The notes: generated from the letters alone by a model not told the origin. DNA of 48,440 nt from Candidatus Parcubacteria bacterium (GCA_002869205.1 PKTJ01000023.1:1-48440), one strand, 5' to 3'; positions 3,982 to 48,440 are shown, counted from the first letter of the stretch. Made by a program: numbers and translations.

Positions 3982-4007
3982 AAAAAACCCCAAACCCGGG
4001 GTTTTTA
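3982..4007. terminator. bidirectional intrinsic terminator
   Basis: AAAAACCCC-loop-GGGGTTTTT hairpin with an A-run on one side and a T-run on the other. It lies after the stop of the + strand hydrolase gene and at the 3' end of the minus-strand structured RNA. Confidence 0.7.
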
Positions 4008-4020
4008 AAATATTTGAGAA

Positions 4021-4218
4021 CGGATTTGGGGGAGGCGGGAGGTCAGCTGGAGTAGGTCGCTGATATATTATGCGCGCCGGAACTTAACCCTCCGATATGA
4101 CCAGAACGGTCAATGTAAGAGGCAATCCCTTGTGGTTAGGGAAAGGTTTCTAGGTGGGACGCGGCGTCCCGGGCGGCGCCGATGGACAACTGAACTCGAC
4201 GTCTCACCCCAAATCCGT
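4021..4218 (-). ncRNA. unclassified GC-rich structured RNA (~200 nt)
   Basis: No credible ORF. A 14-bp closing helix pairs 4021-4034 (CGGATTTGGGGGAG) with 4203-4217 (CTCaCCCCAAATCCG, one bulged A). Internal hairpins lie at 4099-4111, 4127-4141 and 4156-4170. A consensus promoter sits immediately upstream on the minus strand and a terminator at 3982-4007. I could not find the RNase P, tmRNA, SRP or 6S signatures I can recall. Confidence 0.55.
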
Positions 4219-4224
4219 GGCTAC

Positions 4225-4253
4225 ATAATAAATCAAAAATAGGGGAGTGTCAA
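4225..4253 (-). promoter_or_regulatory. sigma70-type promoter of the structured RNA
   Basis: On the minus strand, TTGACA (4253-4248), an exact 17-nt spacer, then TATTAT (4230-4225). The predicted TSS at ~4218 coincides with the 5' arm of the closing helix. Confidence 0.65.
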
Positions 4254-4354
4254 TTGTAAGACAAACAAAAAAACACCTTGCAATGGGAGTTTTCCTTTCC
4301 TCCCCGACCACGTACGTGCGACCGGGGAAGAGTGCGTCTTGGGTTGGAGAAAAG

Positions 4355-4390
4355 GGCGATTTTGAGATAAGAGGTCTCCTTCGGGACCTC
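4355..4390 (-). terminator. GC-rich stem-loop after the island-1 ORF
   Basis: GAGGTC-8 nt loop-GACCTC hairpin abutting the stop codon, followed on the minus strand by a partly U-rich stretch. Confidence 0.45.
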
Positions 4391-4860
4391 TAGGCGGCTT
4401 CGGCGCCGGGTCTGACGACCCAGTGGTTGATAGAGCCGTTGTCGATCATGATGACCGCCTCGCCGGGCTTGAGCTCGTCGAGGTTGGGAATGTTGTCGGC
4501 CTCTCTGAGGCTCACGAAGAACTCCGGGACGCTCTGCGCTTTCGTGAGCGGACATGTGGCGATCACCACCTCAGCGTGGATGGCCTCGACACTCATCGAA
4601 AGGCACGTCCGTGCGTAAGGTACCACAGTCTCGGTCAGGTTGGCGAAGTGGGTGTACTTAACAGTTCCTCTGGTCGCTTCGAGTGCTGTGCACAGTACCG
4701 CGGCGCAGGCCTCGGATTGCACGTCATCCTCGGACGCGAACACGACGATCCTGTCGTGCTGGTCGAAGATAGGCTTGAGTTCCCCTGCCAAGGTCGGCAT
4801 GAGATCAATATCCTCGGCCACGACGACGAAGATTCTACTGACGTTTTCCCAGTGAGGCAT
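4390..4860 (-). CDS. orphan high-GC protein (156 aa), function unknown
   Basis: The start was moved to the Met at 4860, which has a GGAGGAA SD ~5 nt upstream. Third codon positions are almost all G/C, unlike the overlapping ORFs in other frames. No catalytic motif recognised. There is only a vague resemblance to a SixA-like alpha/beta fold, without the RHG motif. Confidence 0.6.
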   Translation of the reverse strand: MPHWENVSRIFVVVAEDIDLMPTLAGELKPIFDQHDRIVVFASEDDVQSEACAAVLCTALEATRGTVKYTHFANLTETVVPYARTCLSMSVEAIHAEVVIATCPLTKAQSVPEFFVSLREADNIPNLDELKPGEAVIMIDNGSINHWVVRPGAEAA

Positions 4861-4909
4861 CCTATTCCTCCGTCCAGAAATCGCTGTGAGCGATGTTGGT
4901 TTCCTGTTT

Positions 4910-4938
4910 TTTATAGCATATTTACCGATTTTGTTCAA
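4910..4938 (-). promoter_or_regulatory. sigma70-type promoter of the island-1 ORF
   Basis: On the minus strand, TTGAAC (4938-4933), a 17-nt spacer, then TATAAA (4915-4910), ~50 nt upstream of the start codon. Confidence 0.5.
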
Positions 4939-5108
4939 GGCAGGGGATTTCATAAACAAAAAACCGTCATAGTTAATCTGGGAGGGGTAGTAGGGGGTTT
5001 CCCCCTACCTACAACCCTTCCGCCTCGTCGGCGGACACTCGACAAGATTGCTTTTTTCTAGTACAATTATCCGTGCTACGTAAAGCGTGACCGCAACGCA
5101 GTTTCACT

Positions 5109-6308
5109 ATGAAAAGACTCATAATTCTCATAATCCTTGGACTCGCCATACTTGGTGTAGTCTTTTTTGTGCGTTCGACCGCAGGGACAACTCTAGAGTT
5201 GTCCGAAGTGGACGTCACAGAACCGCCCAAACCACAATATGACATAACAGAATATATTGTAGGTGAAGATGATATTTTTGCGACCATTATGGAAGATTGG
5301 GGAATTGGGTATAGTGACATGCTTACCATGGTAGATGCTGTGTCGAGTACGTACGACCTTACACGCATTCGCGTTGGTCAACCGATCAGACTTGCAAAAA
5401 ATGAGTATGGACACAATGTGTATCTCGAATATGAACGAAACAAAGATTTATGTGTACGCGTGTATTTTGAAAATGGTGGATACAGAGCAGAAGAATATGA
5501 TGTAGAATATGATGTAGAAATTGTGAAGCAACGTGCGACCGTGAGTAGCTCGATGTATATTGATGGGCTCGAAGCCGATATTCCCGAAGAAATTATTATG
5601 GAATTTGCAGATACGTTTGCATGGACGATTGATTTTTCTGTACAAGTAAAAAAGGGAGATAGTTTTGAAGTCATGTATGAAAAGCGTTCTCGCAAGGGAG
5701 AAGATGCAGGGATGGGAAATATTCTTGCAGCTAAGTTTATGAACGTTGGTACAGAGTTTAGTGCATATTTGTTTGAAAATGAAGAGGGGGATCTGGCGTA
5801 TTATAGTGGAGAAGGAGAAAGCATGGTGCGACAGTTCTTGCGTGCGCCTTTGGATTTCCGTCGTATTTCATCTGGCTATACCTATGCACGATTTGATCCG
5901 ATCAATGGTAGAAAACAAAAGCATCTGGCAATTGATTATGCTGCAGCCATGGGCACACCAATTATGGCAGTGGGGGATGGGACTATTCGTTTTGCTGGCT
6001 GGAACAATCAAGGGTTTGGTAATTTTGTAAGTATTCGTCATAATGATGTCTATATTACTGAGTACGCACACATGTCTGGATTTGCAAAAGGAATTCGAAA
6101 TGGTGTATTTGTCAAACAAGGGCAAGTGATTGGCTATGTAGGATCTACTGGTTGGTCTACTGGTCCACATCTTCACTATCAGATCAAGAAGTATGGGTCA
6201 CTAGTAAATCCTCTTGCACTTGAACTTCCACCAGGAGATCCAGTACCAGAAGGAAAACAAGAAGCGTTTGAAAATATTAAACAAAAATATAACGACATGA
6301 TGAAATAA
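5109..6308 (+). CDS. M23 family metallopeptidase (peptidoglycan endopeptidase)
   Basis: N-terminal signal/TM segment. C-terminal M23 signatures HLAIDYAA, GDGTI, GFGNFVSIRH and GSTGWSTGPHLHYQI. Confidence 0.85.
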   Translation: MKRLIILIILGLAILGVVFFVRSTAGTTLELSEVDVTEPPKPQYDITEYIVGEDDIFATIMEDWGIGYSDMLTMVDAVSSTYDLTRIRVGQPIRLAKNEYGHNVYLEYERNKDLCVRVYFENGGYRAEEYDVEYDVEIVKQRATVSSSMYIDGLEADIPEEIIMEFADTFAWTIDFSVQVKKGDSFEVMYEKRSRKGEDAGMGNILAAKFMNVGTEFSAYLFENEEGDLAYYSGEGESMVRQFLRAPLDFRRISSGYTYARFDPINGRKQKHLAIDYAAAMGTPIMAVGDGTIRFAGWNNQGFGNFVSIRHNDVYITEYAHMSGFAKGIRNGVFVKQGQVIGYVGSTGWSTGPHLHYQIKKYGSLVNPLALELPPGDPVPEGKQEAFENIKQKYNDMMK

Positions 6309-6311
6309 CAT

Positions 6312-7118
6312 ATGTTTGAAACTCCAGAACTAATCGCATTTGCTCTTACTCTATTCGCTGGCCTCTCGACTGGTGTTGGTAGTGCGCTTGCGTTTTTTAC
6401 CAAGCGAACCAATACCAAGGCACTGTCACTTGCACTTGGGTTTAGTGCCGGTGTGATGCTGTATGTATCGTTTATAGAAATGATGCCAGCAGGATTTGAA
6501 AAAGCAGAAAGTGCATTTGGTGATGTGGGTGCATGGTATATTGTCGGATCATTTTTTCTTGGAATTGCTATTGTTGCACTTATTGATAAGTTGGTTCCTG
6601 AATTTGAAAATCCACATGAAGTGCATACTGTAGAAGATATGGAAAAAGAAGACGATGAGCATGATCACAAACATTTGATGCGCCTAGGAGTTCTTACGGC
6701 CGTTGCGCTTGCGATTCATAATTTCCCCGAAGGACTTGTGACATTTATTAGCGCACTCGATGATGTGACGGTTGGTGTCTCTATTGCGATTGCTGTTGCT
6801 ATTCACAATATTCCAGAAGGTATCGCAGTATCTGTACCTATTTACTATGCAACCAAGAGTAAGAAAAAAGCATTTTGGTATTCATTCTTGTCAGGTTTGG
6901 CAGAACCACTTGGTGCATTTCTCGGTTGTTTATTTTTTTGCAGTATCCTTGGAGACGGGGCATATGGAATTATCTTTGCGGCAGTGGCTGGTATTATGAT
7001 CTATGTTTCGCTCGATGAGCTCTTGCCTGCAGCACGCAGGTATGGTGAACACCATCTGGCAATCTATGGACTGATTGCTGGTATGGCTGTGATGGCAGTA
7101 AGCTTGTTAATCATCTAG
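6312..7118 (+). CDS. zupT: ZIP-family zinc transporter ZupT
   Basis: End-to-end resemblance to ZupT, including the duplicated HNFPEG/HNIPEG motifs, a His-rich loop and LAEPLGA. Confidence 0.85.
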   Translation: MFETPELIAFALTLFAGLSTGVGSALAFFTKRTNTKALSLALGFSAGVMLYVSFIEMMPAGFEKAESAFGDVGAWYIVGSFFLGIAIVALIDKLVPEFENPHEVHTVEDMEKEDDEHDHKHLMRLGVLTAVALAIHNFPEGLVTFISALDDVTVGVSIAIAVAIHNIPEGIAVSVPIYYATKSKKKAFWYSFLSGLAEPLGAFLGCLFFCSILGDGAYGIIFAAVAGIMIYVSLDELLPAARRYGEHHLAIYGLIAGMAVMAVSLLII

Positions 7119-7176
7119 CCTTTTAGAAGAGTTTAAAATGTGGTACAATAGTGCCACTTATTTTTTTAAAAAACCT

Positions 7177-7530
7177 ATGCAAGACATACAATCAGTATTC
7201 AACCGTATCCAAGAGTCAAAAAAAGAACAGCGAGATATTCGCAAAATGTACAAAGATGCATTGGACGGGGTGCAGGAATATCAAGAGATCCAAGAAAAAA
7301 CAAAATCACTTCGTGAAAAAAAGAAACGTATCGAAACAACAATTAAAGAACAATTTGCAAGTGAACTTACAAAACTGGAGGATCTCAAGATTGATATTGA
7401 ATCTGACACACAGATGATTACCGATATTGCGCTGAGTAAAATCACTAAGGGCGAAACAGTAGAAGTCACTGACCAGCATGACAATGAATATGAGCCAGTG
7501 TTTAATCTAAAATTTAAGAAGGTGAACTAG
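7177..7530 (+). CDS. hypothetical coiled-coil protein
   Basis: Start moved to the Met at 7177 because an extended -10 (TGgTACAAT, ~7140-7148) lies inside the longer ORF. The sequence is charged with heptad-like repeats. Confidence 0.45.
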   Translation: MQDIQSVFNRIQESKKEQRDIRKMYKDALDGVQEYQEIQEKTKSLREKKKRIETTIKEQFASELTKLEDLKIDIESDTQMITDIALSKITKGETVEVTDQHDNEYEPVFNLKFKKVN

Positions 7531-7536
7531 AATATT

Positions 7537-7570
7537 ATACGGATTTCCGGATAATCCAGATCTACGGATA
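7537..7570 (-). repeat. family-A element, truncated copy (A1)
   Basis: ATACGGATTTCCGGATAATCCAGATCTACGGATA matches the outer end plus one palindrome arm of the ~100-bp copies at 12130, 17027 and 32563. Confidence 0.6.
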
Positions 7571-7701
7571 AAAATGTGATTAAAAAAGAACGGTGGAAGC
7601 CGTTTTTTTATTTTTTTAAAACATGGTATGATGGATTAAGAAATAGTCGGCAAAAAGATTTTTTGTTGGCTCTGGCCACAACGTGCTCCATAGGAGGATG
7701 C

Positions 7702-7974
7702 ATGGCGTCAAACAGTGCGCGAAGGCGTAGGAACAGAGAGTCCAAGACGCGGGCTGCTGAACAAGAAGCCAAGAGGCAGAAGAGCTTCAAGCCTGGGCAA
7801 CAGGAGGAAGGCGGCATCTCTGCTGGTCCTGCTGTTCAAGCTCAGACAGCTTCGAAGAAGTCCGGTCGTCCGGTCATCCCCGCGGGTCGCAACATGACTC
7901 GTACACCGTTCGGGACTGACATCAGCCGGAGGAAGAACCTCTGGGAGAAGCCTCCGGGCGCCGCGAAGAAGTAG
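7702..7974 (+). CDS. orphan high-GC, highly basic low-complexity protein (90 aa)
   Basis: ATG at 7702 with an AGGAGG SD 4-5 nt upstream. The N-terminus is Arg/Lys-rich (ARRRRNRESKTR). Three successive stem-loops follow the stop. The antisense ORF 7708..8016 looks like a GC shadow. Confidence 0.45.
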   Translation: MASNSARRRRNRESKTRAAEQEAKRQKSFKPGQQEEGGISAGPAVQAQTASKKSGRPVIPAGRNMTRTPFGTDISRRKNLWEKPPGAAKK

Positions 7975-8144
7975 ACCCACTCTCTTCGTAGAGAGTTTGT
8001 CTTTTACATCGTACACCCCGCTAGGCCATGCAGCGGGGAGGAAGTCACATCAAACCTCCCATTTGGGAGGATTTTTTTATCCACAATTGACCAGATCTCT
8101 TAAAAGCGTACAATTATAGTAGTAATTTAATTAACTATAAGATT

Positions 8145-8375
8145 ATGAAAGCAGTAGTCTATTCTACCCCTTCATGTCCATATTGTAATCAGGCAAAAGA
8201 TTATTTCAAAGAAAATAATGTAGAGTTTGAAGATTTCAATGTAGCAGAAGATCAGGCAAAAGCTCAGGAGATGGTCAAAAAATCTGGCCAAATGGGTGTG
8301 CCAGTCATCGATCTTGAAGGAACTATCATTGTTGGTTTTGACAAAGCAAAGATCAACGAGGTTCTCGGATTATAA
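8145..8375 (+). CDS. glutaredoxin-like protein (NrdH/YruB type)
   Basis: 76 aa with a CPYC active site and GVPVI..G..IVGFD, as in small glutaredoxins. Confidence 0.8.
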   Translation: MKAVVYSTPSCPYCNQAKDYFKENNVEFEDFNVAEDQAKAQEMVKKSGQMGVPVIDLEGTIIVGFDKAKINEVLGL

Positions 8376-8390
8376 TATCTAGAATATACA

Positions 8391-8416
8391 AAAAAGTCCA
8401 CGTGTTGGACTTTTTT
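8391..8416 (+). terminator. intrinsic terminator
   Basis: AGTCCA-CGTGT-TGGACT hairpin followed by T6, 16 nt after the stop. Confidence 0.7.
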
Positions 8417-8504
8417 GTTTCACCCTCTTCGGGTGATGAATTTTACTTGTGGTGACAGGGGATTCATATTATACTTAAAATATATAAGTCTTAAGTAAGA
8501 ATAT

Positions 8505-8759
8505 ATGGAAAATCAATTATGTGATTCGTGTAGTTTACCACTGACACCAGATGTCGTGGCACCAAAGAATGTTACTCAGTGGAAGCTTTGTAAATATTGT
8601 GTAAAAGACGAGACAGGGGAGATGTGGTCACGTGAGGAAATACTAACGGGTATTCGAGATCATTTTTTCATTGCAGATCAGGGAATGGCAGAAGACGCTG
8701 CTCAGAGGGCTGCCGAAGAAGCATTGAAAAAAATGCCTGCGTGGAAAGATGCTGAGTAG
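8505..8759 (+). CDS. putative zinc-ribbon protein
   Basis: C-x2-C (CDSC) and C-x2-C (CKYC) pairs, followed by a helical acidic tail. Confidence 0.5.
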   Translation: MENQLCDSCSLPLTPDVVAPKNVTQWKLCKYCVKDETGEMWSREEILTGIRDHFFIADQGMAEDAAQRAAEEALKKMPAWKDAE

Positions 8760-8798
8760 ACTATTTATAATTCAAGAACCAATGTGTTTAATTATTAG

Positions 8799-8836: not shown

Positions 8837-8895
8837 ATATAGAAGACTTTTTTAATTTTCAAAAATATGGTAAAATATAGTTCCTTAACTCACTT

Positions 8896-12126: not shown

Positions 12127-12129
12127 AAA

Positions 12130-12231
12130 CTATCCTGATATCCTGATAATCCAGATTTTCCGGATACAATATCCGTAAATCTGGATTATTCCCGTAGATG
12201 AATGCCCTAGGGGTATCTGGAAATCCGTATC
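12130..12231 (+). repeat. family-A ~100-bp palindrome-containing element (A2)
   Basis: It contains TAATCCAGATTTtCCGGAT-N5-ATCCGTAAATCTGGATTA plus the conserved tail CCCGTAGATGAATGCCCTAGGGGTATCTGGAAATCCGTATC. It fills the nifS-nifU gap. A near-identical inverted copy lies at 17027-17127. Confidence 0.8.
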
Positions 12232-12245
12232 TAAATTATAGTAGT

Positions 12246-12911: not shown

Positions 12912-13336
12912 ATCCCGAACGTATGTGAGGGATCTTTCTTAAAGAAAAATGTCTTATGTACAATATGTGGGGAAAACTAATTATTACGTTTATATTTTAG
13001 CCAGTCTTAGTGGTGTTATTTATGTAGGTTTTACTGATTGTCTTGTAAAGCGTATAAAACAACATAAAAATGGATTTTACAAGAATGCATTTACGAAAAA
13101 ATATAATGTGCATAAGCTTGTATATTGGGAGCATTTTTTTCAAGGCAAGATGCACTTGATAGAGAACGACAAATAAAGTCATATAATCGAAATAAAAAAA
13201 TTAATTTAATTGAAAAAGAGAATAAACATTGGAATGATCTTTATCCTTTCATTATAGAATTGTCTAAGAGGCGTCCAATAATTTAGTTAATTAGCTATGT
13301 CATCATCAGGAAAGATTCCTCGCTCTGCTCGGAATA
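12903..13336 (+). mobile_element. degenerate GIY-YIG element bounded by inverted family-B hairpin repeats
   Basis: The left repeat (..ATCCCGAACGTATGTGAGGGATCTTTCTT, 12903-12940) and right repeat (GAAAGATTCCTCGCTCTGCTCGGAAT, ~13309-13336) are inverted copies bracketing the frameshifted GIY-YIG gene. Confidence 0.55.
12949..13286 (+). pseudogene. GIY-YIG nuclease (COG2827/UPF0213-like) interrupted by a frameshift in a T7 run
   Basis: Frame 1 gives YYVYILAS..IYVGFT..RIKQHK..LVYWEHFF, then stops at 13176. A -1 shift at the T7 run (13134-13140) continues as SRQDALDRERQIKSYNRNKKINLIEKENKHWNDLY up to the stop at 13286. This is collinear with, and the same length as, the intact copy at 19765. Confidence 0.65.
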
Positions 13337-13923: not shown

Positions 13924-13956
13924 AAAAAACAGTCTGTTTGCAGGCTGTTTTTTATT
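13924..13956 (+). terminator. intrinsic terminator (left copy of a duplicated terminator)
   Basis: ACAGTCTG-TTTG-CAGGCTGT followed by T6. The 16-nt CAGGCTGTTTTTTATT is repeated exactly at 14308-14323. Confidence 0.7.
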
Positions 13957-13997
13957 ATGATAAGATGGTGAAGATCTTAATCGCCAAAGAGGAGAAG

Positions 13998-14213
13998 ATG
14001 CCCGTAAACTACACCAGTTTCGGGAAAACCAGGTTCTGTCCTGGTTGTCAGGAGAACAAAACGGTCGAGACAGGTCTTGATACGAGAAGTGGCGAATACG
14101 TCCACAGATGTATCAAGGGTTCCTGTGAGTGTGAGTTTGTGGTCCGAGATGGACAGTCGGTCCGTTGGACCGAGCTCGCGCTTGTAGCGGACGAAACTCC
14201 CGACGCCACCTAG
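13998..14213 (+). CDS. orphan high-GC zinc-ribbon-like protein (71 aa)
   Basis: ATG at 13998 with an AGAGGAG SD. Cys/His pattern CPGC ... HRC..GSCEC. G/C-ending codons. A 10-bp GC hairpin (CCCTCGACGT/ACGTCGAGGG) lies downstream. Confidence 0.5.
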   Translation: MPVNYTSFGKTRFCPGCQENKTVETGLDTRSGEYVHRCIKGSCECEFVVRDGQSVRWTELALVADETPDAT

Positions 14214-14290
14214 GCGTCGTGACGTCACCGCGTCGACCAGATCGCAGCCCCTCGACGTCCGGAAACGTCGAGGGCATTCTCACAAATTAA

Positions 14291-14323
14291 AACAGCCTTG
14301 TTTATCACAGGCTGTTTTTTATT
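14291..14323. terminator. bidirectional terminator (right copy of the duplicated terminator)
   Basis: ACAGCCT-10 nt loop-AGGCTGT followed by T6 on the + strand and an A/T run on the other side. It also lies just after the clpB stop on the minus strand. Confidence 0.65.
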
Positions 14324-14344
14324 GAGATATAATAAATCGCGTCT

Positions 14345-16987: not shown

Positions 16988-17026
16988 ACGTTTGTCTTTG
17001 TATAAAAAAATATTTTTGAATATTGA

Positions 17027-17127
17027 GATACGGATTTCCAGATACCCCTAGGGCATTCATCTACGGGAATAATCCAGATTTACGGATATTATATCCGTAA
17101 ATCTGGATTATCTGTATATCAGGATAG
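17027..17127 (-). repeat. family-A element (A3), inverted relative to A2
   Basis: The reverse complement aligns almost base-for-base with 12130-12231. It lies in the divergent gap between the clpB and thpR starts. Confidence 0.8.
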
Positions 17128-17240
17128 TAAAAAAGAAGTAAGTTATTTATCACTCTAATAACCCGAGTGATAATACTATAACATTCTGGTAATTTTTGTC
17201 AACATATGATAAAATTATACCATATTTAGCTAAAAAAAGT

Positions 17241-18628: not shown

Positions 18629-18661
18629 ACAAGTGAAGGCCCCGTCCTTTCCCGCCGGGGC

Positions 18662-18865
18662 TCATGGATCTTTTCGCGAACCAACGTCGATCTTGGTGAT
18701 AGAGCAGAGGAGTGCGTTCCAATTGGCGCCTCGGAGGCGCGGCCCGTCAATTCTAATATTGCTCGGATGAGCAGACACGGAAATACCGGGCGCTGTGATA
18801 TGGACACATTCTCCTGTCGATCGCGCTTGATCGAGTTTTCTCCTGATCTCGGCAAGTGAGACCAT
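18662..18865 (-). CDS. orphan high-GC small protein (67 aa)
   Basis: The start was moved to the Met at 18865 because a consensus promoter lies inside the longer ORF. A GAGGGG SD-like site sits 6 nt upstream and a GC-rich hairpin follows the stop. No family recognised. The alternative frame 18625..18855 cannot be fully excluded. Confidence 0.35.
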   Translation of the reverse strand: MVSLAEIRRKLDQARSTGECVHITAPGISVSAHPSNIRIDGPRLRGANWNALLCSITKIDVGSRKDP

Positions 18866-18895: not shown

Positions 18896-18924
18896 ATTAT
18901 ATAGATTATTATATATATCGTCAA
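18896..18924 (-). promoter_or_regulatory. consensus sigma70-type promoter for the island-4 ORF
   Basis: On the minus strand, TTGACG (18924-18919), an exact 17-nt spacer, then TATAAT (18901-18896). It is divergent from the trmH-like gene. Confidence 0.6.
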
Positions 18925-19693: not shown

Positions 19694-20136
19694 CCCTGAG
19701 CGACCAGAGGGAGTCGAATGGGGAAGGATCTCTCTTAAAAGGTGTGGGGCTAACACACCAAAATATGGTTAGACAACATAACTACTATGTATACATAATG
19801 GCAAGCGTCAGTAAAGTATTATATGTAGGCGTTACAAATGACTTAGTACGTAGAGCGATGCAACATAAATCTGGATTATTTGAAGGATTTACTAAAAAAT
19901 ATAATTGTAAACGATTAGTATATTACGAACATTTTACAGACATAAGAAAAGCTATAAAAAGAGAAAAAGAATTAAAAGGTTGGAAACGGTATAAAAAAGT
20001 TGAGCTTATTGAAGAAATTAATGTTGAATGGTCTGATCATTATCAGACCATAATAACGTTCTCTAGAATAAAACCAAGATAAATTATTTAAACATGAACG
20101 AGGTAAGAGAGATTCTTCACTGCGTTCAGAATGACA
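19683..20136 (+). mobile_element. GIY-YIG element with terminal inverted hairpin repeats (apparently intact copy)
   Basis: The outer termini are TGTCATCCTGA (19683-) and TTCAGAATGACA (-20136), whose reverse complement is TGTCATTCTGAA. The inner ends are AGAGATCC / GAGAGATTC. It encloses one 105-aa GIY-YIG ORF. Confidence 0.6.
19765..20082 (+). CDS. GIY-YIG nuclease family protein (COG2827/UPF0213-like)
   Basis: YYVYIMAS..LYVGVTNDLVRRAMQHK..LVYYEHF..AIKREKELKGW matches the GIY-(x10)-YVG and R/E core. The start was moved to the ATG at 19765. Confidence 0.8.
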   Translation: MVRQHNYYVYIMASVSKVLYVGVTNDLVRRAMQHKSGLFEGFTKKYNCKRLVYYEHFTDIRKAIKREKELKGWKRYKKVELIEEINVEWSDHYQTIITFSRIKPR

Positions 20137-32562: not shown

Positions 32563-32662
32563 AGATTCGGATATTCGGATAATCCAGATTTACGGATTCT
32601 ACATCTGTAAATCTGGATTATCCCCGAAGATGGATGCCCTGCGGGTATCCGGAAATCAGTAT
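32563..32662 (+). repeat. family-A element (A4)
   Basis: It has the same order and orientation as A2 (GATAATCCAGATTTACGGAT..ATCTGTAAATCTGGATTAT..GATGGATGCCCTGCGGGTATCCGGAAATC). It fills the gap between the Ham1-Nudix stop and the serS start. Confidence 0.8.
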
Positions 32663-34134: not shown

Positions 34135-36231
34135 TTATTTGAGACCGATATCCCCTGCAATTTCACGCATAGAATCAATTGCAATAGTCAAAAATTCATC
34201 CAAAGTCAATCCTAGCTGCTCACATTCTTTTATGACATTCCGGTCAACGTTTGCAGCAAATTTTTTATCTTTCATTTTTTTCTTTACTGACTTTGCTTCA
34301 AGGTCCATAATTTTGTTTGGACGCATGAGTGATGTGGAATAAATAAGTCCGGTCACTGTTTCGCTGCACGCTAGAGCATGTTCGAGTTCTTGTGAGCGTT
34401 TCATATCTTTCATGCCTGCACAATCAAAACCATATCCGTGAGATAGGACAATAGTAATGAAGTCTTCGTCAAATCCTTTTTCTTTGAGAAGTTCCGGAGC
34501 TTTTGTAAGATGTGTGGTGGAGTCGTGTTCAGTAATTTCCCAATCAATATCATGAAGGAGTCCGAGCATTCCCCAATATTCTTCGTCTTTTCCTAAGTGT
34601 TTTGCAAGACCGCGCATCACGGCTTCGGATTCTAAATAGTGATTTAAGTTTGCTTCTTTTTTTGTATATTCTTTTACAAACGCAAGAGCTTCTTCTCGAG
34701 AGATAGGGAGAATATAATCTATATTTTTTTTATTGTTAACTTGCTTACTTGTCAACTTGCTAACTTGAAGACTAGAATGTTCTGGTTTCATGAGTGGAAA
34801 CAAAACACATTCGCGAATAGGTTTGTCCATCATAAATGCAAAGAGTCTTTCACCAAATCCAAATCCACATGTTGGTGGCATACCGTGTTCGAGCATCTCT
34901 ACAAATTCAAAATCTGGCATCATAGCTTCGTCATCCCCTCTTTCGATAAGCTTTTGTTGTAGTTCAAATCGTTCGCGCTGGTCTACCGGATCGTTTAACT
35001 CTGAATAACCATTTCCTACTTCACTTCCAGCAATGATCACTTGGAAGCGTTCAGTCGTTTCTAAATCTTCTGGACGTGCTTTTGCTAGTGGCGAAATAAG
35101 TTTTGGGTGATTGATGAGAAATGCCGGCCCTGCAATATTACGTCGACAATATTTCCAGAGTGTGTCTGTGAGTCGTTCTTTGTTATCACCTTCATATTTC
35201 ACCTTTAATTTCTCAAGTTTTTTCTTCATCTCATCTTCAGTGGCTTTTGTGATGTCGATCTTTGTTTGTTTTTTGATTTCTTTTGCATATTCAACATGAG
35301 GCCACTCACCTGCAAGATCATATTCATATTCTTTTGTCTTGAACTTTGTGGTACCAAAGACTTCCTCAGCAATGCGTTGATATAATTCTTGGGTCAATTT
35401 CATGCCATCATTATAATTTGCATATGCCCAATAAAATTCCATGTTGGTAAATTCTTGCAAATGGTCAGGACTAGACCCTTCATTACGAAATACCTTGCCA
35501 ATTTCAAATGTCTTTTCAAATCCTGCTGCCATGAGACGTTTTTGCAAAAGTTCTCCGACAGAAATACGTAAGAAGACATCCAGATCAAAATCATTATGAT
35601 GTGTAGCAAATGGAGTTGCTTCTGCGCCACCTGTTGTGGTTTCGAGATAAGGAGTTTCTACTTCAAAAAATCCTTTTTCTTTCATAAATGTTCTTGTAAC
35701 ATCCCAAAATTTTGCTTTTTTATAAAACATGTCACGAATTTCTGGATTCAAGAGCAAATCAAGATAGCGTTTGCGTAGTCGTAGTTCTTCGTCTTGGATA
35801 CCGTGAAATTTGTCTGGCAATGGAAGGATTGCTTTTGAAAGAAGTGTCCATGTTTTTATTAAAACAGATTCTTCACCTTTATGTGTTTGAAATCTTTCGC
35901 CATCAATCAAAATAATATCACCAATATCAATTTTTTTGGTAAATAGTTTGTAGTTTTCATTTCCGAGCTCATCTTGCTTGAAAGCTATTTGCATTTTTCC
36001 TGATTCGTCCTGAAGATGACAAAAGGTAAGTTTACCCATGTCGCGTTTTGTCATGATACGGCCTGACACTTGCACTGACTCCCCTGCTTTCATGCCTAGA
36101 GCTTCAGAAACTGAATGGTTATTTTCAGTGTGAGCTGGGTATGGATTAATTCCAGATTCTTTCAAATCAGCGAGTTTTTTTAGGCGAATTTCGCGCTCAT
36201 CGTTTATGTTTAATTCAGGTTGTTTAGTCAT
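34135..36231 (-). CDS. lysS: lysyl-tRNA synthetase (class II) fused to a C-terminal HD-domain hydrolase
   Basis: The LysRS OB and class II core run up to ..CVLFPLMKPEH. A 20-aa linker follows, then an HD domain (GLLHDIDWE.., VLSHGYGF). The start was moved to the Met at 36231 (MTKQPEL). Confidence 0.9.
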   Translation of the reverse strand: MTKQPELNINDEREIRLKKLADLKESGINPYPAHTENNHSVSEALGMKAGESVQVSGRIMTKRDMGKLTFCHLQDESGKMQIAFKQDELGNENYKLFTKKIDIGDIILIDGERFQTHKGEESVLIKTWTLLSKAILPLPDKFHGIQDEELRLRKRYLDLLLNPEIRDMFYKKAKFWDVTRTFMKEKGFFEVETPYLETTTGGAEATPFATHHNDFDLDVFLRISVGELLQKRLMAAGFEKTFEIGKVFRNEGSSPDHLQEFTNMEFYWAYANYNDGMKLTQELYQRIAEEVFGTTKFKTKEYEYDLAGEWPHVEYAKEIKKQTKIDITKATEDEMKKKLEKLKVKYEGDNKERLTDTLWKYCRRNIAGPAFLINHPKLISPLAKARPEDLETTERFQVIIAGSEVGNGYSELNDPVDQRERFELQQKLIERGDDEAMMPDFEFVEMLEHGMPPTCGFGFGERLFAFMMDKPIRECVLFPLMKPEHSSLQVSKLTSKQVNNKKNIDYILPISREEALAFVKEYTKKEANLNHYLESEAVMRGLAKHLGKDEEYWGMLGLLHDIDWEITEHDSTTHLTKAPELLKEKGFDEDFITIVLSHGYGFDCAGMKDMKRSQELEHALACSETVTGLIYSTSLMRPNKIMDLEAKSVKKKMKDKKFAANVDRNVIKECEQLGLTLDEFLTIAIDSMREIAGDIGLK
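34733..34770 (-). repeat. family-D AACTTG-type 8-nt-periodic tract embedded in the lysS-HD linker
   Basis: TTGTTAACTTGCTTACTTGTCAACTTGCTAACTTGAAG has the same unit as the intergenic tract at 9685-9720. It is translated as ..LQVSKLTSKQVNN.. Confidence 0.6.
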
Positions 36232-36295
36232 ACAAAAAAACAAAGAAATTATGCTTAAATATAGGATAATTGTACCAAAAATGTGAGGAAAATAC

Positions 36296-36322
36296 AAATA
36301 CCCCCATCATGGGGGTATTTTT
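36296..36322 (-). terminator. intrinsic terminator after greA
   Basis: AAATACCCCC-ATCAT-GGGGGTATTT with flanking T/A runs. Confidence 0.65.
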
Positions 36323-42012: not shown

Positions 42013-42015
42013 ATC

Positions 42016-43655: not shown

Positions 43656-43659
43656 ATAG

Positions 43660-43786
43660 TGTAATCTCGAATCCGAACGATAGTGAGTGATGAGAGATCT
43701 TTCTTACAAAGCGCACCTCTCTTTGGCTATTTTGTGAATTAGAGGTGTTTAATTTATGAAAGATTCCTCACTCTGTTCGGAATGAA
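43660..43786. repeat. family-B gene-less inverted doublet (MITE-like)
   Basis: The left unit TGTAATCTCGAATCCGAACGATAGTGAGTGATGAGAGATCTTTCTT and right unit GAAAGATTCCTCACTCTGTTCGGAATGAAT are inverted copies. A central CACCTCT/AGAGGTG hairpin lies between them. The doublet starts 5 nt from a gene start. Confidence 0.65.
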
Positions 43787-43853
43787 TATAAAAATAGCTC
43801 TTATCAAGCTATCTTATTTTACCGCTTTTGTGGGTTTTTGACAAGTTTTGTTC

Positions 43854-44153
43854 TTAGGCCAAATATCGTATACGATCCACCTCATTTTTGCCTAATTTTT
43901 CATTCATTTTTTCTACTATTTCAGCCTGATTGAGTCTAATTTCTCCGGCTATGGCAGAACTCGAACAGCTTACAGTAAGTGTTCTGTTTTTCAAAAACAA
44001 CGGCTTTGCTTGCAACGCCATTTCTTTTTCAAACATCTCCTCAAACACACTTTGTGCAATTTCAATAATTTCAGCTTCTTCGAGCTGTTTTTTCCCTGCA
44101 GCATCTTTTTCTGAATTGTCATGGAGTGTGTCTCCAAGTGGTGTAAATGGCAT
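43854..44153 (-). CDS. DUF721 / DciA-like protein
   Basis: 99 aa with a LKNRTLTVSCSSSAIAGEIRLNQAEIVEKMNEKLG pattern typical of DUF721. Confidence 0.6.
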   Translation of the reverse strand: MPFTPLGDTLHDNSEKDAAGKKQLEEAEIIEIAQSVFEEMFEKEMALQAKPLFLKNRTLTVSCSSSAIAGEIRLNQAEIVEKMNEKLGKNEVDRIRYLA

Positions 44154-44164
44154 AGTTATATTAA

Positions 44165-44683
44165 CTAGACTTTGTATATGTATATAGTATCATCTTTTGC
44201 GACAGGTTGCCAGTCCGGAAAGGTAAACGCATGTGAAACAATACGACTTCCTGGCTTCATTTCACGTTTTATTTTCTTTTTTAGCTTATTCATCCAGTGA
44301 GGAATAAAGTAAATTGAAATCACATCATACTCACTCAAATCAACATTCCAGAGGGTGTCACGTATGAGTGTGGTATTTTTGCTTTTACTTTTTGTCTTTT
44401 TTAGTTTACTTATGATATGCAAAAGTGGGCTGATTTCTACTCCTGTTGCATGTTTGCATTTTTTTGCGGCTGCAAATACCAGTCTCCCATCACCAGAACC
44501 AAGATCTATGAACTTTTCATCTTGTTTTAATTCTACAAGCTTGAGCATCCTCTCTACCTTTGTATGATTTGTTGGCACAAATGGTGCTCCGCTAATCATG
44601 GCATAGAGTGCATAGAGCAAATATACGAGAATCGCGATATAAATTAACGAAAATACAATTATGATTGCCCAAAGCATAAGCAT
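44165..44683 (-). CDS. class I SAM-dependent methyltransferase with N-terminal TM helix
   Basis: Motif I FIDLGSGDGRLVFAAA, with later acidic and aromatic motifs. Confidence 0.7.
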   Translation of the reverse strand: MLMLWAIIIVFSLIYIAILVYLLYALYAMISGAPFVPTNHTKVERMLKLVELKQDEKFIDLGSGDGRLVFAAAKKCKHATGVEISPLLHIISKLKKTKSKSKNTTLIRDTLWNVDLSEYDVISIYFIPHWMNKLKKKIKREMKPGSRIVSHAFTFPDWQPVAKDDTIYIYKV

Positions 44684-44709
44684 CTTATAAGATTATTAGT
44701 TATGATCTA

Positions 44710-47661
44710 TTACAATTGTCTAAATTCACAAATTTCTTTGAAATCGCAATATTTACACACATGTTTTCCTGGTGTTGGTGTGAAGTTTCCCTCTCTGATT
44801 TTTTCCATTACACCGAGGAGTTTTTGTTGTAATTTTTCCATGTCTTTGTCTTTGCCAACAAACGAGGTTTTCAGATCATCATTTACATAGTAGAAGGTTA
44901 GTTTTCCTACCTCACCAATATTTCGATATTCAGGCAATGTCTGAGCAGCAATCTGATAGATGAGAAGCTGTTGTTTGTCATCTGTGGCAAGCTTATCCTT
45001 ACCTTTTCCAGTTTTGTAGTCAATAATTTCAAGTGTGCCATCTTCTAATTTGTCTATACGATCAATACGACCATTGATGAGGTAATCCCCTACTTTGATT
45101 TTGAAGAAACCCTCAAGACTTACTGGTACTGTCCAGTTGTCTTCCTGAGAGGTGTAAAAAACTTTAAGAATATCCTTTCCTTTTTTATAATAACTCTCAC
45201 GTTGTTTTTTACTTTTATACCAGTCTCCTATCCATTTGTCCTCATACATTTCCAGAAGCTCTTCCATATTTGGCACTTTTATGCCATTCGCCTTTGTTTC
45301 TGAGGGTTTTTCAGCAGGTAGTCCGAAGAGTGAGGCTTGTTTTACATTGTTTAGTTCCTGAACACGTTCGTAAAATTCTTGCAGTGTGTTGTGAATACTA
45401 TTACCAAAACTAAATGCCGCACTACCTTTCATAGGGATTTTCAAAATATGTGCAAGTTTGTATTGATATGGGCAACGTTGATATGAATTGAGTTGAGAGA
45501 ATGAAAATTTTGATGGAGGTGTGTACTCAAATTCACCAACATCTGTTGAAGTTACTTCATTGTTAAAATGTTTCATTGTGTTTTGAGGGTCTTTGTTTTT
45601 TTCAATCACTTCCTTTCCCTCTGTGGTGAATCCGAGTTCATGCAAGAATCTACTTACTTTCTTTTGTCTCACACCCCCATAATTATCTGCACTACTAAAG
45701 AAGAGGTGTTGTTTTGCACGTGTTGCTGCTACATAAAACAGACGTCTTTCTTCTGCATAATGTATATCATTTGATTCAGGTAGAGACTCTTTTATGAGTT
45801 CGTCTGGTAAATCTATGTCTCCGCCGCGTCTCCGTGTAGGGAATCTTTCTTCTACACAATTTACTACAAAAACATATTTGTATTCCAGACCTTTGGCACC
45901 GTGAACAGTGATAATATTGACTGAATCAGGTGTGTCAGTTGGTTGATACATTTTTCCACCATCCCCTGATTCGATAATATAGTTATAATGTTCTACAAAT
46001 CCAGCCACATGTGCTCCGGGGATTGCACGTTCATAGTTTGAAATAAGATCAAAAAGTTGCTTGAGGTGATATATTTGTCTAATCACTTCTCTATTTCCTT
46101 GATTCTCTTCGTGTGTAAGATATGAAAAATAACCACTGCTTTCCATAAATTCATATAGGATCGAAGTTGGTTTTTCAAATTTTATGTGCTTCATTCCATC
46201 GTGCACCCAGGCGATTAAGTTGCTCGCAATGGTGACTCCTTCTGGTGATATATAAAATTCTTTTGATCGTTTTAGTGCCTCATAATAACTTATTGACTTC
46301 TTTTTTGCACTGGCAGTTATTTTTTGTATATCATTTTCTGTGAATTTCAAAAATGGCATGCGTAAGAGTCTATACCAGGCTCTATCATCTTGGATGTGTT
46401 CGAGGATGTTTAAAAAATTTATAGCATCAAGTACTACTGGCTGACGATAAAGTCCGGATGAGGCAATAAATTCATATGGTATACCCGAGGATTCTAATCT
46501 GCTCAAGAAAGGTTCTGTATGACTATTCGCACGCACGAGAATCGCAAAGTCATCCCAATCTGCAGATTCTTTTTCACGTATATCACTGATTTTTTGTATT
46601 ACACCAGCTACCTCATCATCGAGAGTGGAAAAATGCAAATGTTCTACATTTCCTTTAATTTTAGCCTTGGATTCAAGCTTTTTATCAAGTCCTAATTTTT
46701 CTTCTAGTCTCTCAGGATTATTATTCAAAATACTTTTGTATGCAAGATCCAAAATCTCTTGTCCCGAGCGATAGTTTTCTGTAAGTACTATTTCTTTTGC
46801 TTGTTTGTAATCTTCTTTAAACCTCATGATGATGGATACGTTTGAACCGCGAAATGCATAGATAGATTGATCGTCATCTCCCACAACAGTGAGTTGAGAA
46901 TCTTCTCCTGTCAGAAGTCTGATGAGCTGGTATTGAGCCCAGTTTACATCTTGAAATTCGTCTACAAGAATATACTTAAATCTCTCTTGAAGTTTCTTTA
47001 AAATATTTGGACGTTCTTGTAATAGCTTTACACAATAAAAAATCAGATCACCAAAGTCTAATGCCTGATTGTCTAGAAGTAACTGGTCATATGTGTGATA
47101 TGCGTTGGCGATTTCAACACGTTTATTTTTTTCTTGAATCTCCGCTTCATCTTTGTCGAGAGTCAGACCTTCTGCATATTCCAGATAATCTTTTGAAGTA
47201 ATTAATTCATCTTTTGCTTTTGAAAAATGTGAAAGTAGGGTGTGAATTTGTCCGGTTGGGTTACCGAGTGGACGATAATAATCCAAATTAAAATCATAAA
47301 TATGTTCTCTTACAAGAAGCCATGCGTCTGTTCCAGAAAGAAGTTTGAAATGTGGAGGTAATCCTAAATCTACGCCATATTCTTCGAGAAGCCTCTGACA
47401 AAAGGCGTGAAATGTGGAAATTTGAAGATCAATGTAACCTATTTCAAGCATTTCATCCACACGTTCCTGCATTTCTGCAGCAGCCTTGTCAGTAAACGTG
47501 AGAGCCAATATTTCTTCAGCCTTTGCTTTCTTGGAATCAATAAGATGGGTAATCTTTTGTGTCACCACCGTTGTCTTCCCTGTACCTGCCCCCGCAACAA
47601 TCAGAAGAGGGCCGTCGTTGTATTCGACTGCCTCGCGTTGTGCTTTGTTTAGTTTATACAT
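44710..47661 (-). CDS. UvrD/PcrA/AddA-type superfamily 1 helicase fused to a C-terminal PD-(D/E)xK nuclease with a Cys cluster
   Basis: AGAGTGKT (Walker A), VDEFQD (motif II) and VHGAKGLEY. The C-terminus has C...GRIDRID..IIDYKTG...CKYCDFKEIC (AddB/Cas4-like). The start was moved to the ATG at 47661 because the GTG-initiated extension runs into the high-GC block. Confidence 0.85.
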   Translation of the reverse strand: MYKLNKAQREAVEYNDGPLLIVAGAGTGKTTVVTQKITHLIDSKKAKAEEILALTFTDKAAAEMQERVDEMLEIGYIDLQISTFHAFCQRLLEEYGVDLGLPPHFKLLSGTDAWLLVREHIYDFNLDYYRPLGNPTGQIHTLLSHFSKAKDELITSKDYLEYAEGLTLDKDEAEIQEKNKRVEIANAYHTYDQLLLDNQALDFGDLIFYCVKLLQERPNILKKLQERFKYILVDEFQDVNWAQYQLIRLLTGEDSQLTVVGDDDQSIYAFRGSNVSIIMRFKEDYKQAKEIVLTENYRSGQEILDLAYKSILNNNPERLEEKLGLDKKLESKAKIKGNVEHLHFSTLDDEVAGVIQKISDIREKESADWDDFAILVRANSHTEPFLSRLESSGIPYEFIASSGLYRQPVVLDAINFLNILEHIQDDRAWYRLLRMPFLKFTENDIQKITASAKKKSISYYEALKRSKEFYISPEGVTIASNLIAWVHDGMKHIKFEKPTSILYEFMESSGYFSYLTHEENQGNREVIRQIYHLKQLFDLISNYERAIPGAHVAGFVEHYNYIIESGDGGKMYQPTDTPDSVNIITVHGAKGLEYKYVFVVNCVEERFPTRRRGGDIDLPDELIKESLPESNDIHYAEERRLFYVAATRAKQHLFFSSADNYGGVRQKKVSRFLHELGFTTEGKEVIEKNKDPQNTMKHFNNEVTSTDVGEFEYTPPSKFSFSQLNSYQRCPYQYKLAHILKIPMKGSAAFSFGNSIHNTLQEFYERVQELNNVKQASLFGLPAEKPSETKANGIKVPNMEELLEMYEDKWIGDWYKSKKQRESYYKKGKDILKVFYTSQEDNWTVPVSLEGFFKIKVGDYLINGRIDRIDKLEDGTLEIIDYKTGKGKDKLATDDKQQLLIYQIAAQTLPEYRNIGEVGKLTFYYVNDDLKTSFVGKDKDMEKLQQKLLGVMEKIREGNFTPTPGKHVCKYCDFKEICEFRQL

Positions 47662-47715
47662 AACATTATGACAATAACGTGGAATCCAGCTCTGAGCCTC
47701 CGAGGATCCCACTTC

Positions 47716-48177
47716 TCAGAGCCGGTTATCTCCCGGCACCTTGCATACGTACTTCATGATGCGTGCGAACAGTCCAAAAGGACCAGTGTGCGTCTTGAAG
47801 TAGTAGGTGCCGTAGTTGAGCACAACGCTCGTCGTGAATGTGAGGACTGTGGGGGCGATTACGCTCCAAAACAACTCAGGTGTTTCGTTGAAGAACTGTC
47901 CAGCGAAATGCCAGGAGAATGTCGTGAGTGTGGGGATTGCTGTTCCTAGAGTGTATGACCACAGTCTGTTTTCCCAAGCGGCGAACCACTGGATTACACC
48001 GGTCATAGTGCCTGTTATTGCAACCCCTGTTACACCTGCTACAAGTCCTGCACGGAGAGATTCCTCCCAGCCGTGCGATATGTTCACAAGAGCTGTCATC
48101 GATCCAATGACAGGAAGTGCCCACCAACCGAGCCGAGGATTAAAGATGTTCTGGAAGAACCATTTGACCCAATTCAT
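47716..48177 (-). CDS. orphan higher-GC 4-TM membrane protein (153 aa)
   Basis: Four hydrophobic Trp/Gly/Thr-rich helices and an AAGGA SD ~5 nt upstream. Composition is clearly richer in G+C than the neighbours. No family recognised. Confidence 0.55.
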   Translation of the reverse strand: MNWVKWFFQNIFNPRLGWWALPVIGSMTALVNISHGWEESLRAGLVAGVTGVAITGTMTGVIQWFAAWENRLWSYTLGTAIPTLTTFSWHFAGQFFNETPELFWSVIAPTVLTFTTSVVLNYGTYYFKTHTGPFGLFARIMKYVCKVPGDNRL

Positions 48178-48440
48178 GGCCGTCCTTCAGGTGGTTAGTT
48201 ATGCATATAGTATCATATCTGGTTTGTAATATAAAGAAAAAGTTCTGTTGAAAACAGAACTTTTAAAAAAGATTTTCTAAGGGTTAGCAACCACAACCGC
48301 CGCCCCCAAGATTTTTAGGACACACCATAGATAAATATTAATAATTAATATAAATATAGTATGATTTAAGTAAGGAGATTGGTCAATTGTGTATAAGTCT
48401 ATTAGTCAACTTTGTGAATGTTATTTTGACGTATCATTCC

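Follow-up and report, generated by a model that had tools for sequence, protein, structure and literature searches.

How did five short GC-rich blocks come to lie between the conserved genes of a reduced, AT-rich bacterial genome, and what do they encode? The question is raised by contig PKTJ01000023.1 (GCA_002869205.1) of a Candidatus Parcubacteria bacterium, which was analyzed over its full length of 48,440 bp and is referred to below as the window. The original prediction, made from the sequence alone, had proposed either repeated acquisition of tiny foreign cassettes from a high-GC donor or a dispersed set of accessory micro-genes belonging together. Comparison of assemblies confirmed that the five blocks are real, discrete and sharply bounded GC-rich insertions. 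Their presence varies between relatives, their composition and translation signals are of a foreign type, and the open reading frames (ORFs) of blocks 1 and 5, named B1 and B5, are protein-coding; for the ORFs B2, B3 and B4, small proteins and/or small RNAs are plausible products. We hold with moderate confidence that the blocks are independent foreign-type single-gene islets at intergenic gain/loss hot spots of a chromosome of the Candidate Phyla Radiation (CPR).

Composition, start signals and turnover of the blocks

The window is an entire contig with 37.7% G+C. A 300-nt sliding profile revealed five peaks of 0.51-0.60 G+C (3.9-5.1 kb, 7.65-8.1 kb, 13.95-14.4 kb, 18.45-18.9 kb and 47.55-48.15 kb) against the contig mean of 0.377, and the blocks as delimited in the original prediction have a G+C content of 0.52-0.57, with 0.30-0.43 in the adjoining 300-bp flanks. 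The five ORFs are present with the predicted lengths of 156, 90, 71, 67 and 153 aa (B1 to B5) and have a G+C content of 0.51-0.60. Their G+C at third codon positions (GC3) is 0.78 in B1, 0.66 in B2, 0.60 in B3, 0.52 in B4 and 0.58 in B5, which is 5 to 11 standard deviations (sd) above the GC3 of the native ORFs (n=46; mean G+C 0.369; GC3 0.298, sd 0.045, maximum 0.40), and codon preference runs opposite to that of native genes (Lys AAG 0.75 vs 0.22, Ile ATC 0.72 vs 0.20, Leu CTC 0.58 vs 0.21). Sliding-window G+C and GC3 thus bear out the sharply bounded blocks. The claim that each contains exactly one small ORF holds insofar as the ORFs exist, but the count is a matter of frame choice, as overlapping antisense ORFs also arise in the GC-rich blocks, and coding by B2-B4 is uncertain; against composition-matched shuffles, ORF length gave p=0.001 for B1 and B5, p=0.02 for B3, p=0.04 for B4 and p=0.07 for B2. 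A sixth, weaker G+C peak (41.0-41.2 kb, 0.51) lies inside mreB and is a separate phenomenon.

Blocks 1-3 are spanned by a contig of ENA assembly ERZ794998 (L163) that is 99.74% identical to the window, with 44 single-nucleotide polymorphisms (SNPs) and no indels, and a 100% identical contig from Logan assembly SRR5894287 (L164; window 4871-7443) reaches just the right edge of block 1. Block 4 is spanned by JGI assembly 3300007102 (L001) and block 5 by three further contigs (L165, L166 and L167). The junctions are identical across the NCBI, JGI, ENA and Logan assemblies, some of which have their own SNPs, and no SNP between assemblies falls inside the five ORFs. Because independent assemblies with SNP-level differences carry all five blocks, these are not chimeras, a concern raised by the original prediction that is answered here by comparing assemblies rather than by read mapping. 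The insertions fall precisely in between terminators and promoters. Among public genomes, metagenome-assembled genomes of Candidatus Magasanikbacteria/Parcubacteria are the closest, and the host is a CPR bacterium resembling Candidatus Magasanikbacteria, with a reduced genome.

The blocks also differ from native genes in their start signals. A Shine-Dalgarno (SD) match is missing at 43 of 44 native starts (examples are those at 490, 2354, 5109, 8145, 10870 and 20094) and is found before all five block ORFs, at the predicted SD-like sites: GGAGG (B1), AGGAGG (B2), AGGAG (B3), GGAG (B4) and AAGGA (B5). Native leaders are short and A/T-rich, with the -10 box often 15-25 nt upstream of the ATG. 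Initiation in this organism seems not to depend on an SD, and against that background the SD-led GC-rich ORFs are conspicuous. The window and eight relatives were scanned without bias for an SD followed by a spacer, an ATG and an ORF of 40 aa or more; the matches at true ORF starts were essentially GC-rich island ORFs, examples in relatives being L083 14383-14628, L005 13437-14231 and L092 12214-12513. In the B2 and B5 orthologs the SD persists although adjacent bases differ. The anti-SD motif is absent from about half of Parcubacteria 16S rRNAs (PMC9297842).

Promoters and terminators were predicted from consensus matches. As anticipated, near-consensus promoters with 17-nt spacers precede B4, the block-1 RNA and B1, and a GC-rich hairpin follows the stop codon of every block ORF. 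A recurrent extended -35 context, (C/T)(C/T)ACAATTGAC(C/A), was observed in the glutaredoxin, micropeptide and block-1 RNA promoters (window 8081-8091 (+), 48382-48392 (-) and 4249-4259 (-)) and in relatives (L003 7794-7806; L082/L083); its core 11-mer is not enriched in the window (20 observed, 18 expected).

To follow the sites in related genomes, relatives were sampled around one marker gene; SufS identity to the window is 90% for L002/L083 (about 82% at the nucleotide level) and 83% for L003/L084. At site 1, upstream of the M23 peptidase, L003 (UBA11699) carries a tRNA-Asn(GUU) whose anticodon loop is split by a group I intron (4770-5185, minus strand; Rfam 58 bits; the tRNA was missed by ARAGORN), and no tRNA or group I intron was found in the window, Rfam scan included. 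Another group I intron match was noted in L006 (569-833). Site 2 measures 72 bp between the flanking genes in L003 versus 614 bp in the window, and L083 has a B2 homolog in the corresponding position, directly before the glutaredoxin promoter. Site 3 is reduced to one bidirectional terminator of about 95 bp in L003, holds a 3-kb insert of normal composition in L002/L083, which by eye looks like a sigma factor and an anti-sigma factor, and is occupied by a GC-rich 264-aa membrane-protein gene in L005 and a 340-aa enzyme gene in L106. At site 4 the window, L002/L083 and L003 each have one GC-rich (0.52-0.56) minus-strand, SD-led and hairpin-terminated small ORF, and no similarity in sequence or protein was detectable among the three occupants. 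B5, finally, is present in L082 beside a different neighbor: synteny with the window covers B5 and its upstream region, including an ORF for a 14-aa Cys/Gly peptide and the gene for a sulfatase, and the downstream neighbor differs.

The five blocks are not found together in relatives: blocks 2 and 3 are missing from L003, and L083, which has block 2, is without block 3 and carries another gene at site 4. The islets are therefore gained, lost or replaced individually at recurrent intergenic slots, without travelling together. No repeat, end motif, promoter motif or protein family is common to the five blocks; direct repeats flank B3 (22 nt) and the block-1 RNA (15 nt, imperfect), and none flank blocks 2, 4 and 5. 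L083, the closest relative, contains additional GC-rich islets that have no counterpart in the window: one between clpB and a LigT-like gene (L083 12701-13000, equivalent to L002 9081-9400), and a 155-aa SD-led ORF that adjoins the B2 homolog at the contig start (L083 1-620). These extra islets illustrate rapid islet turnover. Across the loci compared, GC islands unexplained by tRNA genes (those in 17 loci were also checked against Rfam) are frequent in CPR relatives, and none was found in the AT-rich Firmicutes and archaeal loci among those checked by name; the CPR island ORFs have no protein family in common. One apparent "conserved island ORF" in L104/L102 was discarded, as the two genomes are near-identical and the ORF lies inside a longer gene.

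Protein genes and candidate RNAs within the blocks

Block 1 is a composite of an RNA unit (a), the B1 unit (b) and a double hairpin unit (c). B1 (4390-4860, minus strand; G+C 0.59) clearly encodes a protein: its codon-phase periodicity is strong (chi2=45.9, p=1e-10), and its SD lies 6 nt upstream of the start. Its G+C at the three codon positions, 0.60/0.40/0.78, is that expected of an unameliorated gene from a genome of about 60% G+C. The unit is completed by the promoter TTGAAC-17-TATAAA, read on the minus strand (4910-4938), and by a 3' untranslated region (UTR; 4262-4389, minus strand) in which folding of 4262-4392 gave two GC-rich hairpins, which with a T-run form the terminator region; the transcript as a whole folds with z=-1.8. 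The product is an acidic alpha/beta ORFan. An AlphaFold2 single-sequence model (predicted local distance difference test, pLDDT, 63; predicted template modelling score, pTM, 0.62) has four beta-alpha units and a hairpin, making a cytoplasmic alpha/beta protein plausible. Foldseek searches of this model against the PDB returned just generic Rossmann-like, TIR or GT-A-like folds (TM-score at most 0.37) and gave no assignment. Searches with B1 of 5.8e9 clusters and, by full HMMER scan, of 1.84e9 representatives recovered no protein but B1, barring one repeat artefact (P0006, E=1e-5), a spurious hit in which a 31-residue match is multiplied by eight DUF5801 repeats. A likeness to a GC-rich 162-aa ORF in L046, possibly receiver-like, received no support from BLASTP.

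B5 (47716-48177, minus strand) is coding as well, and specifies an integral membrane protein with four hydrophobic segments that is under purifying selection. Its single ortholog (P0005, 80% identical) is located on the AT-rich contig L082, with a dN/dS of 0.09, a GC3 of 0.56 compared with 0.58 in B5, and a retained SD (AAGGA in B5, GGAGG in the ortholog). Thus, in the sole ortholog that could be tested, the prospect raised earlier that the ORFs lack conservation or a coding signal in relatives was not borne out, and neither was the prospect of orthologs with ordinary AT-rich composition. A role as a membrane accessory protein is plausible; the AlphaFold2 model (pLDDT 31) was unusable. The transcript folds with z=-1.7, the 3' hairpin (47678-47710, minus strand) resembles one after the L082 ortholog, and the promoter region (48200-48216, minus strand; extended -10 TGATACTAT) duplicates the neighboring promoter at 48349-48365 as a 17-nt direct repeat with 82% identity. 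Just upstream of B5 there is a micro-ORF encoding MVCPKNLGGGGCGC followed by a stop (48284-48328, minus strand), with its own predicted promoter and terminator, which is conserved in L082 as MVCPKNLGGGGCSC and could specify a Cys/Gly-rich micropeptide or a leader peptide.

The structured RNA announced for block 1 was recovered as a predicted non-coding RNA (ncRNA) gene of about 200 nt (4021-4219, minus strand; z=-4.0 on that strand). A roughly 35-bp interrupted helix closes its 5' and 3' ends around internal hairpins, and it contains no ORF. The promoter, TTGACA-17-TATTAT (4225-4253, minus strand), has the lineage-typical ACAATTGAC extended -35, and the closing helix begins 6 nt downstream of the end of its -10 element. 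The hairpin AAAAACCCCAAACCCGGGGTTTTT at 3984-4010, read from the sequence as a bidirectional terminator acting on both strands, closes the upstream amidohydrolase gene (plus strand) and the RNA (minus strand), and the 15-nt imperfect direct repeat ties it to the 5' end of the RNA. The RNA is identical in the independent assembly L163. It had no Rfam match at the gathering threshold or at E<=10, and neither nhmmer nor a covariance model found homologs in about 1-2 Mb of related loci. 6S RNA, a rod of about 180-200 nt in which a closing stem and a terminal stem enclose a large central bubble, was considered, since length, closing stem and an asymmetric AU-rich internal loop fit, and was rejected: the interior has multiple branches, and even at E<=10 there was no hit to a 6S family. 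With its folding and its own predicted promoter and terminator, the element is a candidate new structured ncRNA, independently promoted. Unit c, a GC-rich double hairpin (4966-5036, both strands; z=-2.7 and -3.1 on the two strands), is placed between the promoters of B1 and the M23 peptidase.

In block 2, an extended -10 (TGGTATGAT, 7624-7632, plus strand; kept in the alignment with L083 as TGATATGAT) is followed by a 5' hairpin, the SD, the ORF, two hairpins and an intrinsic terminator. B2 (7702-7974, plus strand) would encode a 90-aa protein with an isoelectric point (pI) of 11.7 and disorder predicted from composition. The 3' region (7979-8079, plus strand) comprises hairpins at 7979-7996 and 8016-8038, the latter retained in L083, and the terminator at 8055-8070 with its T-run. 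SD (GGAGG in L083), ATG, 5' hairpin and 3' hairpin are all conserved in the L083 copy, and the cassette has about 0.6 G+C in both genomes. Identity is 53% in the 5' half, approximately the neutral level for these genomes, and 81% in the 3' half, with a 62-nt core at 95%, which is above the neutral level.

Block 3 is a 367-bp unit between two copies of a 22-nt direct repeat (91% identical, spacing 367). The left copy (13941-13962, plus strand) comprises a terminator 3' arm, a T-run and an AT-rich -10-like stretch; the right copy (14308-14329, plus strand) is part of the ancestral clpB-side terminator and orthologous in L002 and L003. B3 (13998-14213, plus strand) is either a 71-aa Cys-rich ORF (CPGC...C-x5-C-x-C) or the core of a structured RNA of about 300 nt, and is followed by the GC-rich 3' hairpin CCCCTCGACGTCCGGAAACGTCGAGGG (14248-14274, plus strand). 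In block 4, the putatively coding B4 (18662-18865, minus strand; 67 aa) with its SD-like GGAG is framed by the promoter TTGACG-17-TATAAT (18896-18924, minus strand; 11 of 12 positions) and a GC-rich 3' hairpin (18633-18656, minus strand).

It is possible, though we would put it only tentatively, that B2, B3 and B4 are, like the block-1 RNA, structured small RNAs marked by GC-rich islands in an AT-rich genome, with ORFs that arose by chance in stop-poor GC-rich sequence, a view that overlaps other readings of the blocks. Codon-phase periodicity is absent (p=0.30 for B2, 0.40 for B3 and 0.94 for B4), the ORF lengths given above are marginal against shuffles, and the folds of B3 (region 13970-14285, z=-5.4) and B2 (z=-3.1) are strong. 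In the B2 copy of L083 the frame is interrupted by a TAG at codon 17 and the original stop is gone, and substitutions between the two copies show neither a codon-position pattern nor a third-position excess, the excess of conservation lying in the 62-nt core and the 3' hairpin. B3 was left uncalled by the gene caller in assembly L163. The reasoning applied to GC-rich intergenic regions (GC-IGRs) of low-GC genomes (PMC11109978, PMC6429828) holds here too. Protein coding is favored by the SD that each of the three has at the correct spacing to its ATG, with SD and ATG of B2 kept in L083, by the indels between B2 copies, which add up to multiples of three, and by the Cys pattern of B3, which is zinc-ribbon-like. 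Moreover, the fold of B4 does not reach significance (z=-0.8), Rfam gave no match, and one or two sequences are too few to assess covariation; the 12 double-sided changes in the B2 alignment come from two sequences only.

Database searches agree with the earlier impression that the products have no recognizable motif. PADLOC, PHROGs, NCBIfam and the known Rfam families gave no match for the blocks, PDB sequences none for B1, B3 and B5 (the three searched), viral contigs none for B1, B2 and B5, plasmids none for B1, and phage genomes none for block 1. All called versions of the block proteins are singletons among 90% clusters. No homologs of B2-B4 were found outside the lineage, though no dedicated deep protein search was made for these three; for B3 and B4 the search consisted of an exact 90%-cluster look-up, local tblastn and family libraries, with PDB sequences added for B3.

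Origin of the blocks

As foreign-type islets, the blocks would amount to six self-contained accessory transcription units, counting the block-1 RNA, in variable intergenic gaps. Each unit would consist of a GC-rich core (a 5' UTR with an SD, a small ORF or structured RNA, and GC-rich 3' hairpins), expressed from a local AT-rich sigma-70-type promoter and insulated by terminators. Gene-sized pieces of foreign-type DNA would have been gained one at a time between conserved genes, and the islets then kept, replaced or lost individually in related lineages. Horizontal origin, the integration event, expression and every function are what we infer from the comparisons rather than observe. Repeated foreign acquisition, one of the two alternatives offered originally, fits the empty sites, the unrelated occupants at one site, the codon usage, and the presence of an SD in an SD-less genome. 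A single high-GC donor does not agree with the data, as GC3 varies between 0.52 and 0.78 and about 15 billion proteins yielded no donor homolog.

Several observations weigh against foreign islets. Neither mobility genes nor a conserved end motif was found, and a single block has flanking direct repeats. The promoters are native-type, including the lineage-specific ACAATTGAC -35 context of the block-1 RNA, which is unexpected for freshly imported DNA. In B5, GC-richness and SD are kept in the relative despite heavy synonymous divergence (proportion of synonymous differences, pS, 0.61), and the 5' half of B2 diverges at a near-neutral rate, yet remains at about 0.6 G+C in both genomes; this pattern can be read as composition held by selection in native genes. 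No positive sign of translation was obtained for B2, B3 and B4. Finally, no donor or homolog outside the lineage was identified for any block, the search having been less deep for B3 and B4.

Alternatively, the blocks could be native lineage-specific elements with their own expression regime, in which GC-richness and SD are kept by selection, an explanation that we regard as rather doubtful. A possible reason would be that the transcripts must be highly structured or stable, so that A/U-rich SD-independent initiation is impossible and an SD is needed. Consistent with this, the B5 ortholog keeps its SD and a GC3 of 0.56-0.58 while NG86 pS is 0.61 for B5 and 0.71 for the neighboring sulfatase gene, B2 keeps its composition, SD and 5' and 3' hairpins at 53% identity in the 5' half, site 4 still holds a terminated minus-strand unit that is GC-rich and SD-led in all three relatives, promoters are native-type, and folding is pronounced for B3, the block-1 RNA and B2 (z=-5.4, -4.0 and -3.1). 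Against it, folding of the B1 and B5 transcripts is unremarkable (z=-1.8 and -1.7), the elements are dispensable, given that L003 has empty sites in place of blocks 2 and 3, and the site-4 occupants have no detectable homology. The synonymous sites of B5 also give it less weight than first assumed. An argument that they are saturated, so that GC-richness must be selected, was withdrawn: four-fold degenerate sites of B5 and its ortholog are 51% identical against 26% by chance (native genes 50-53% against 33-37%), and their G+C (GC4) is only 0.39-0.46. A rough two-state relaxation places the GC3 of the common ancestor at about 0.75-0.8, which is the present value of B1. With the four-fold sites unsaturated, neutral amelioration of an import from that level fits as well as compositional selection. 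GC-biased gene conversion was rejected as a source of the GC-richness, since it predicts raised G+C in recombining flanks, and the flanks are not raised.

A more specific version is improbable. It holds that the GC-rich SD-led genes form a class translated only via SD/anti-SD pairing and controlled apart from the A/U-leader proteome, much as rpsU is in Bacteroidia; jointly with this, the class would turn over fast at fixed slots while keeping composition, promoter, SD and terminator. The known case is that of the SD-poor Bacteroidia, where the rare SD-led gene rpsU is autoregulated with a sequestered anti-SD (PMC7797042, PMC13000453). The likeness lies in native genes without an SD next to very few genes with a strong one; the difference is that the SD-led genes here are accessory ORFans, not a ribosomal protein gene.

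The second alternative of the original prediction, that the five blocks form one dispersed system of co-regulated micro-genes, is very improbable: they have in common a layout (promoter, SD, small ORF and GC-rich hairpins) and a composition, but do not co-occur in L003, L083 and L082, lack a common sequence, promoter motif, repeat or protein family, and gave no match to a defence-system or other family. An assembly or binning artefact, with reads of a GC-rich organism spliced into an AT-rich contig, can be dismissed with near certainty, for although the compositional boundaries are sharp and the coverage is low (about 4-5x in the ENA assemblies, from contig names), four assemblies, some with their own SNPs, have the same junctions exactly between terminators and promoters, and B2 and B5 occur in the same context in different species.

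Known parallels and surrounding features

The preferred reading, foreign-type islets gained at hot spots, can be compared with several known systems. Phage morons are the Hendrix-type extra genes of lambdoid prophages. The blocks resemble them in being single small genes of deviant composition between conserved neighbors, with their own predicted promoter and terminator and a patchy distribution in relatives. They differ in location: morons lie within phages or prophages, whereas the blocks sit among ordinary cellular, mostly housekeeping, chromosomal genes such as those for ClpB, GluRS, SufS/NifU, MreBCD and PBP2, and no phage homologs were found, PHROGs included.

Flexible genomic islets are single-gene islets at hot spots of horizontal gene transfer (HGT) between core genes. 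Here the likeness includes the same core-gene interval holding varying accessory content (sites 3 and 4), presence and absence with conserved flanks, atypical composition and codon usage, and ORFans. In contrast to such islets, the blocks measure just 0.25-1.1 kb, are GC-richer rather than AT-richer than the host, bear an SD in an otherwise SD-lacking genome, belong to a CPR bacterium with a reduced genome, and have no integrase, tRNA or mobile-element hallmark; nor do they have the homolog outside the lineage that would point to a donor. Integron cassettes, which form a tandem array beside intI with an attC recombination site ending each cassette, differ further, as the blocks are dispersed over 44 kb and have neither an integrase nor a common end repeat.

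The blocks are also of the kind collected by GC-IGR pipelines, which extract long GC-rich intergenic regions from low-GC genomes (PMC11109978, PMC6429828). Most such regions turned out to be ORFs known elsewhere ("Known ORFs", 2948 of 4714; PMC11109978, PMC6429828). In the terms of that work the block-1 RNA would count as a "novel structured ncRNA candidate", as might B3 and B2, with the difference that no known RNA family matches, that at least B1 and B5 are protein genes, and that the blocks are polymorphic in presence and absence, unlike conserved regulatory RNAs. Contrary to the original statement that no described system has this layout, morons, single-gene HGT islets and the GC-IGR search space (PMC11109978) all match it in part. 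The blocks are thus best read as an unusual variant of ordinary gene-gain hot spots and not as a new coordinated system.

CPR genomes are seen as minimal and streamlined, and this contig suggests that they can have intergenic slots with a turnover of gene-sized units of foreign composition, which bring, or need, an SD that native genes leave unused. If the units are imports, they would offer a tractable record of the DNA captured by episymbionts and of the kind of donor; if GC-richness and SD are selected, they would point to a second translation-initiation regime in a lineage in which the fate of the anti-SD is at issue. The block-1 RNA, and perhaps B3, are also candidate new structured RNAs.

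As had been stated, the blocks lie between conserved housekeeping genes of a reduced CPR genome. Besides the genes mentioned above, Pfam matches among the neighbors include SerRS, a second class-II synthetase, a Mur ligase, FemAB, GreA, DciA, a LysRS-HD protein and a UvrD-PD-(D/E)XK helicase. Every window gene matched by Pfam has an ordinary cellular role, in most cases a housekeeping one; a few window ORFs are without a match, and genes for an integrase, a transposase, a reverse transcriptase or phage functions are absent from the window. The LysRS protein (720 aa; 34135-36297, minus strand) is a fusion in which an HD phosphohydrolase domain follows the synthetase at the C-terminus.

Two small ORFs with a GIY-YIG domain (12949-13176 and 19744-20082, both plus strand) have an unusually low G+C of 0.29-0.30 and occupy intergenic-like positions; both lie no more than about 1 kb from a GC-rich block and may be free-standing homing-endonuclease-like genes. 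Finally, a 22-bp perfect palindrome (GGATAATCCAGATTTACGGATA / TATCCGTAAATCTGGATTATCC) forms the core of an AT-rich repeat, about 85-108 bp long, that occurs at 12129-12236, 17022-17128 (minus strand) and 32578-32662, with a partial copy at 7551-7570. The copies sit intergenically, between SufS and NifU, between ClpB and LigT and upstream of SerRS, and the fragment lies just left of block 2. The repeat was matched at two places in L002/L083, of which the one after SufS is the equivalent site, and it may be an operator or an element resembling a miniature inverted-repeat transposable element (MITE).

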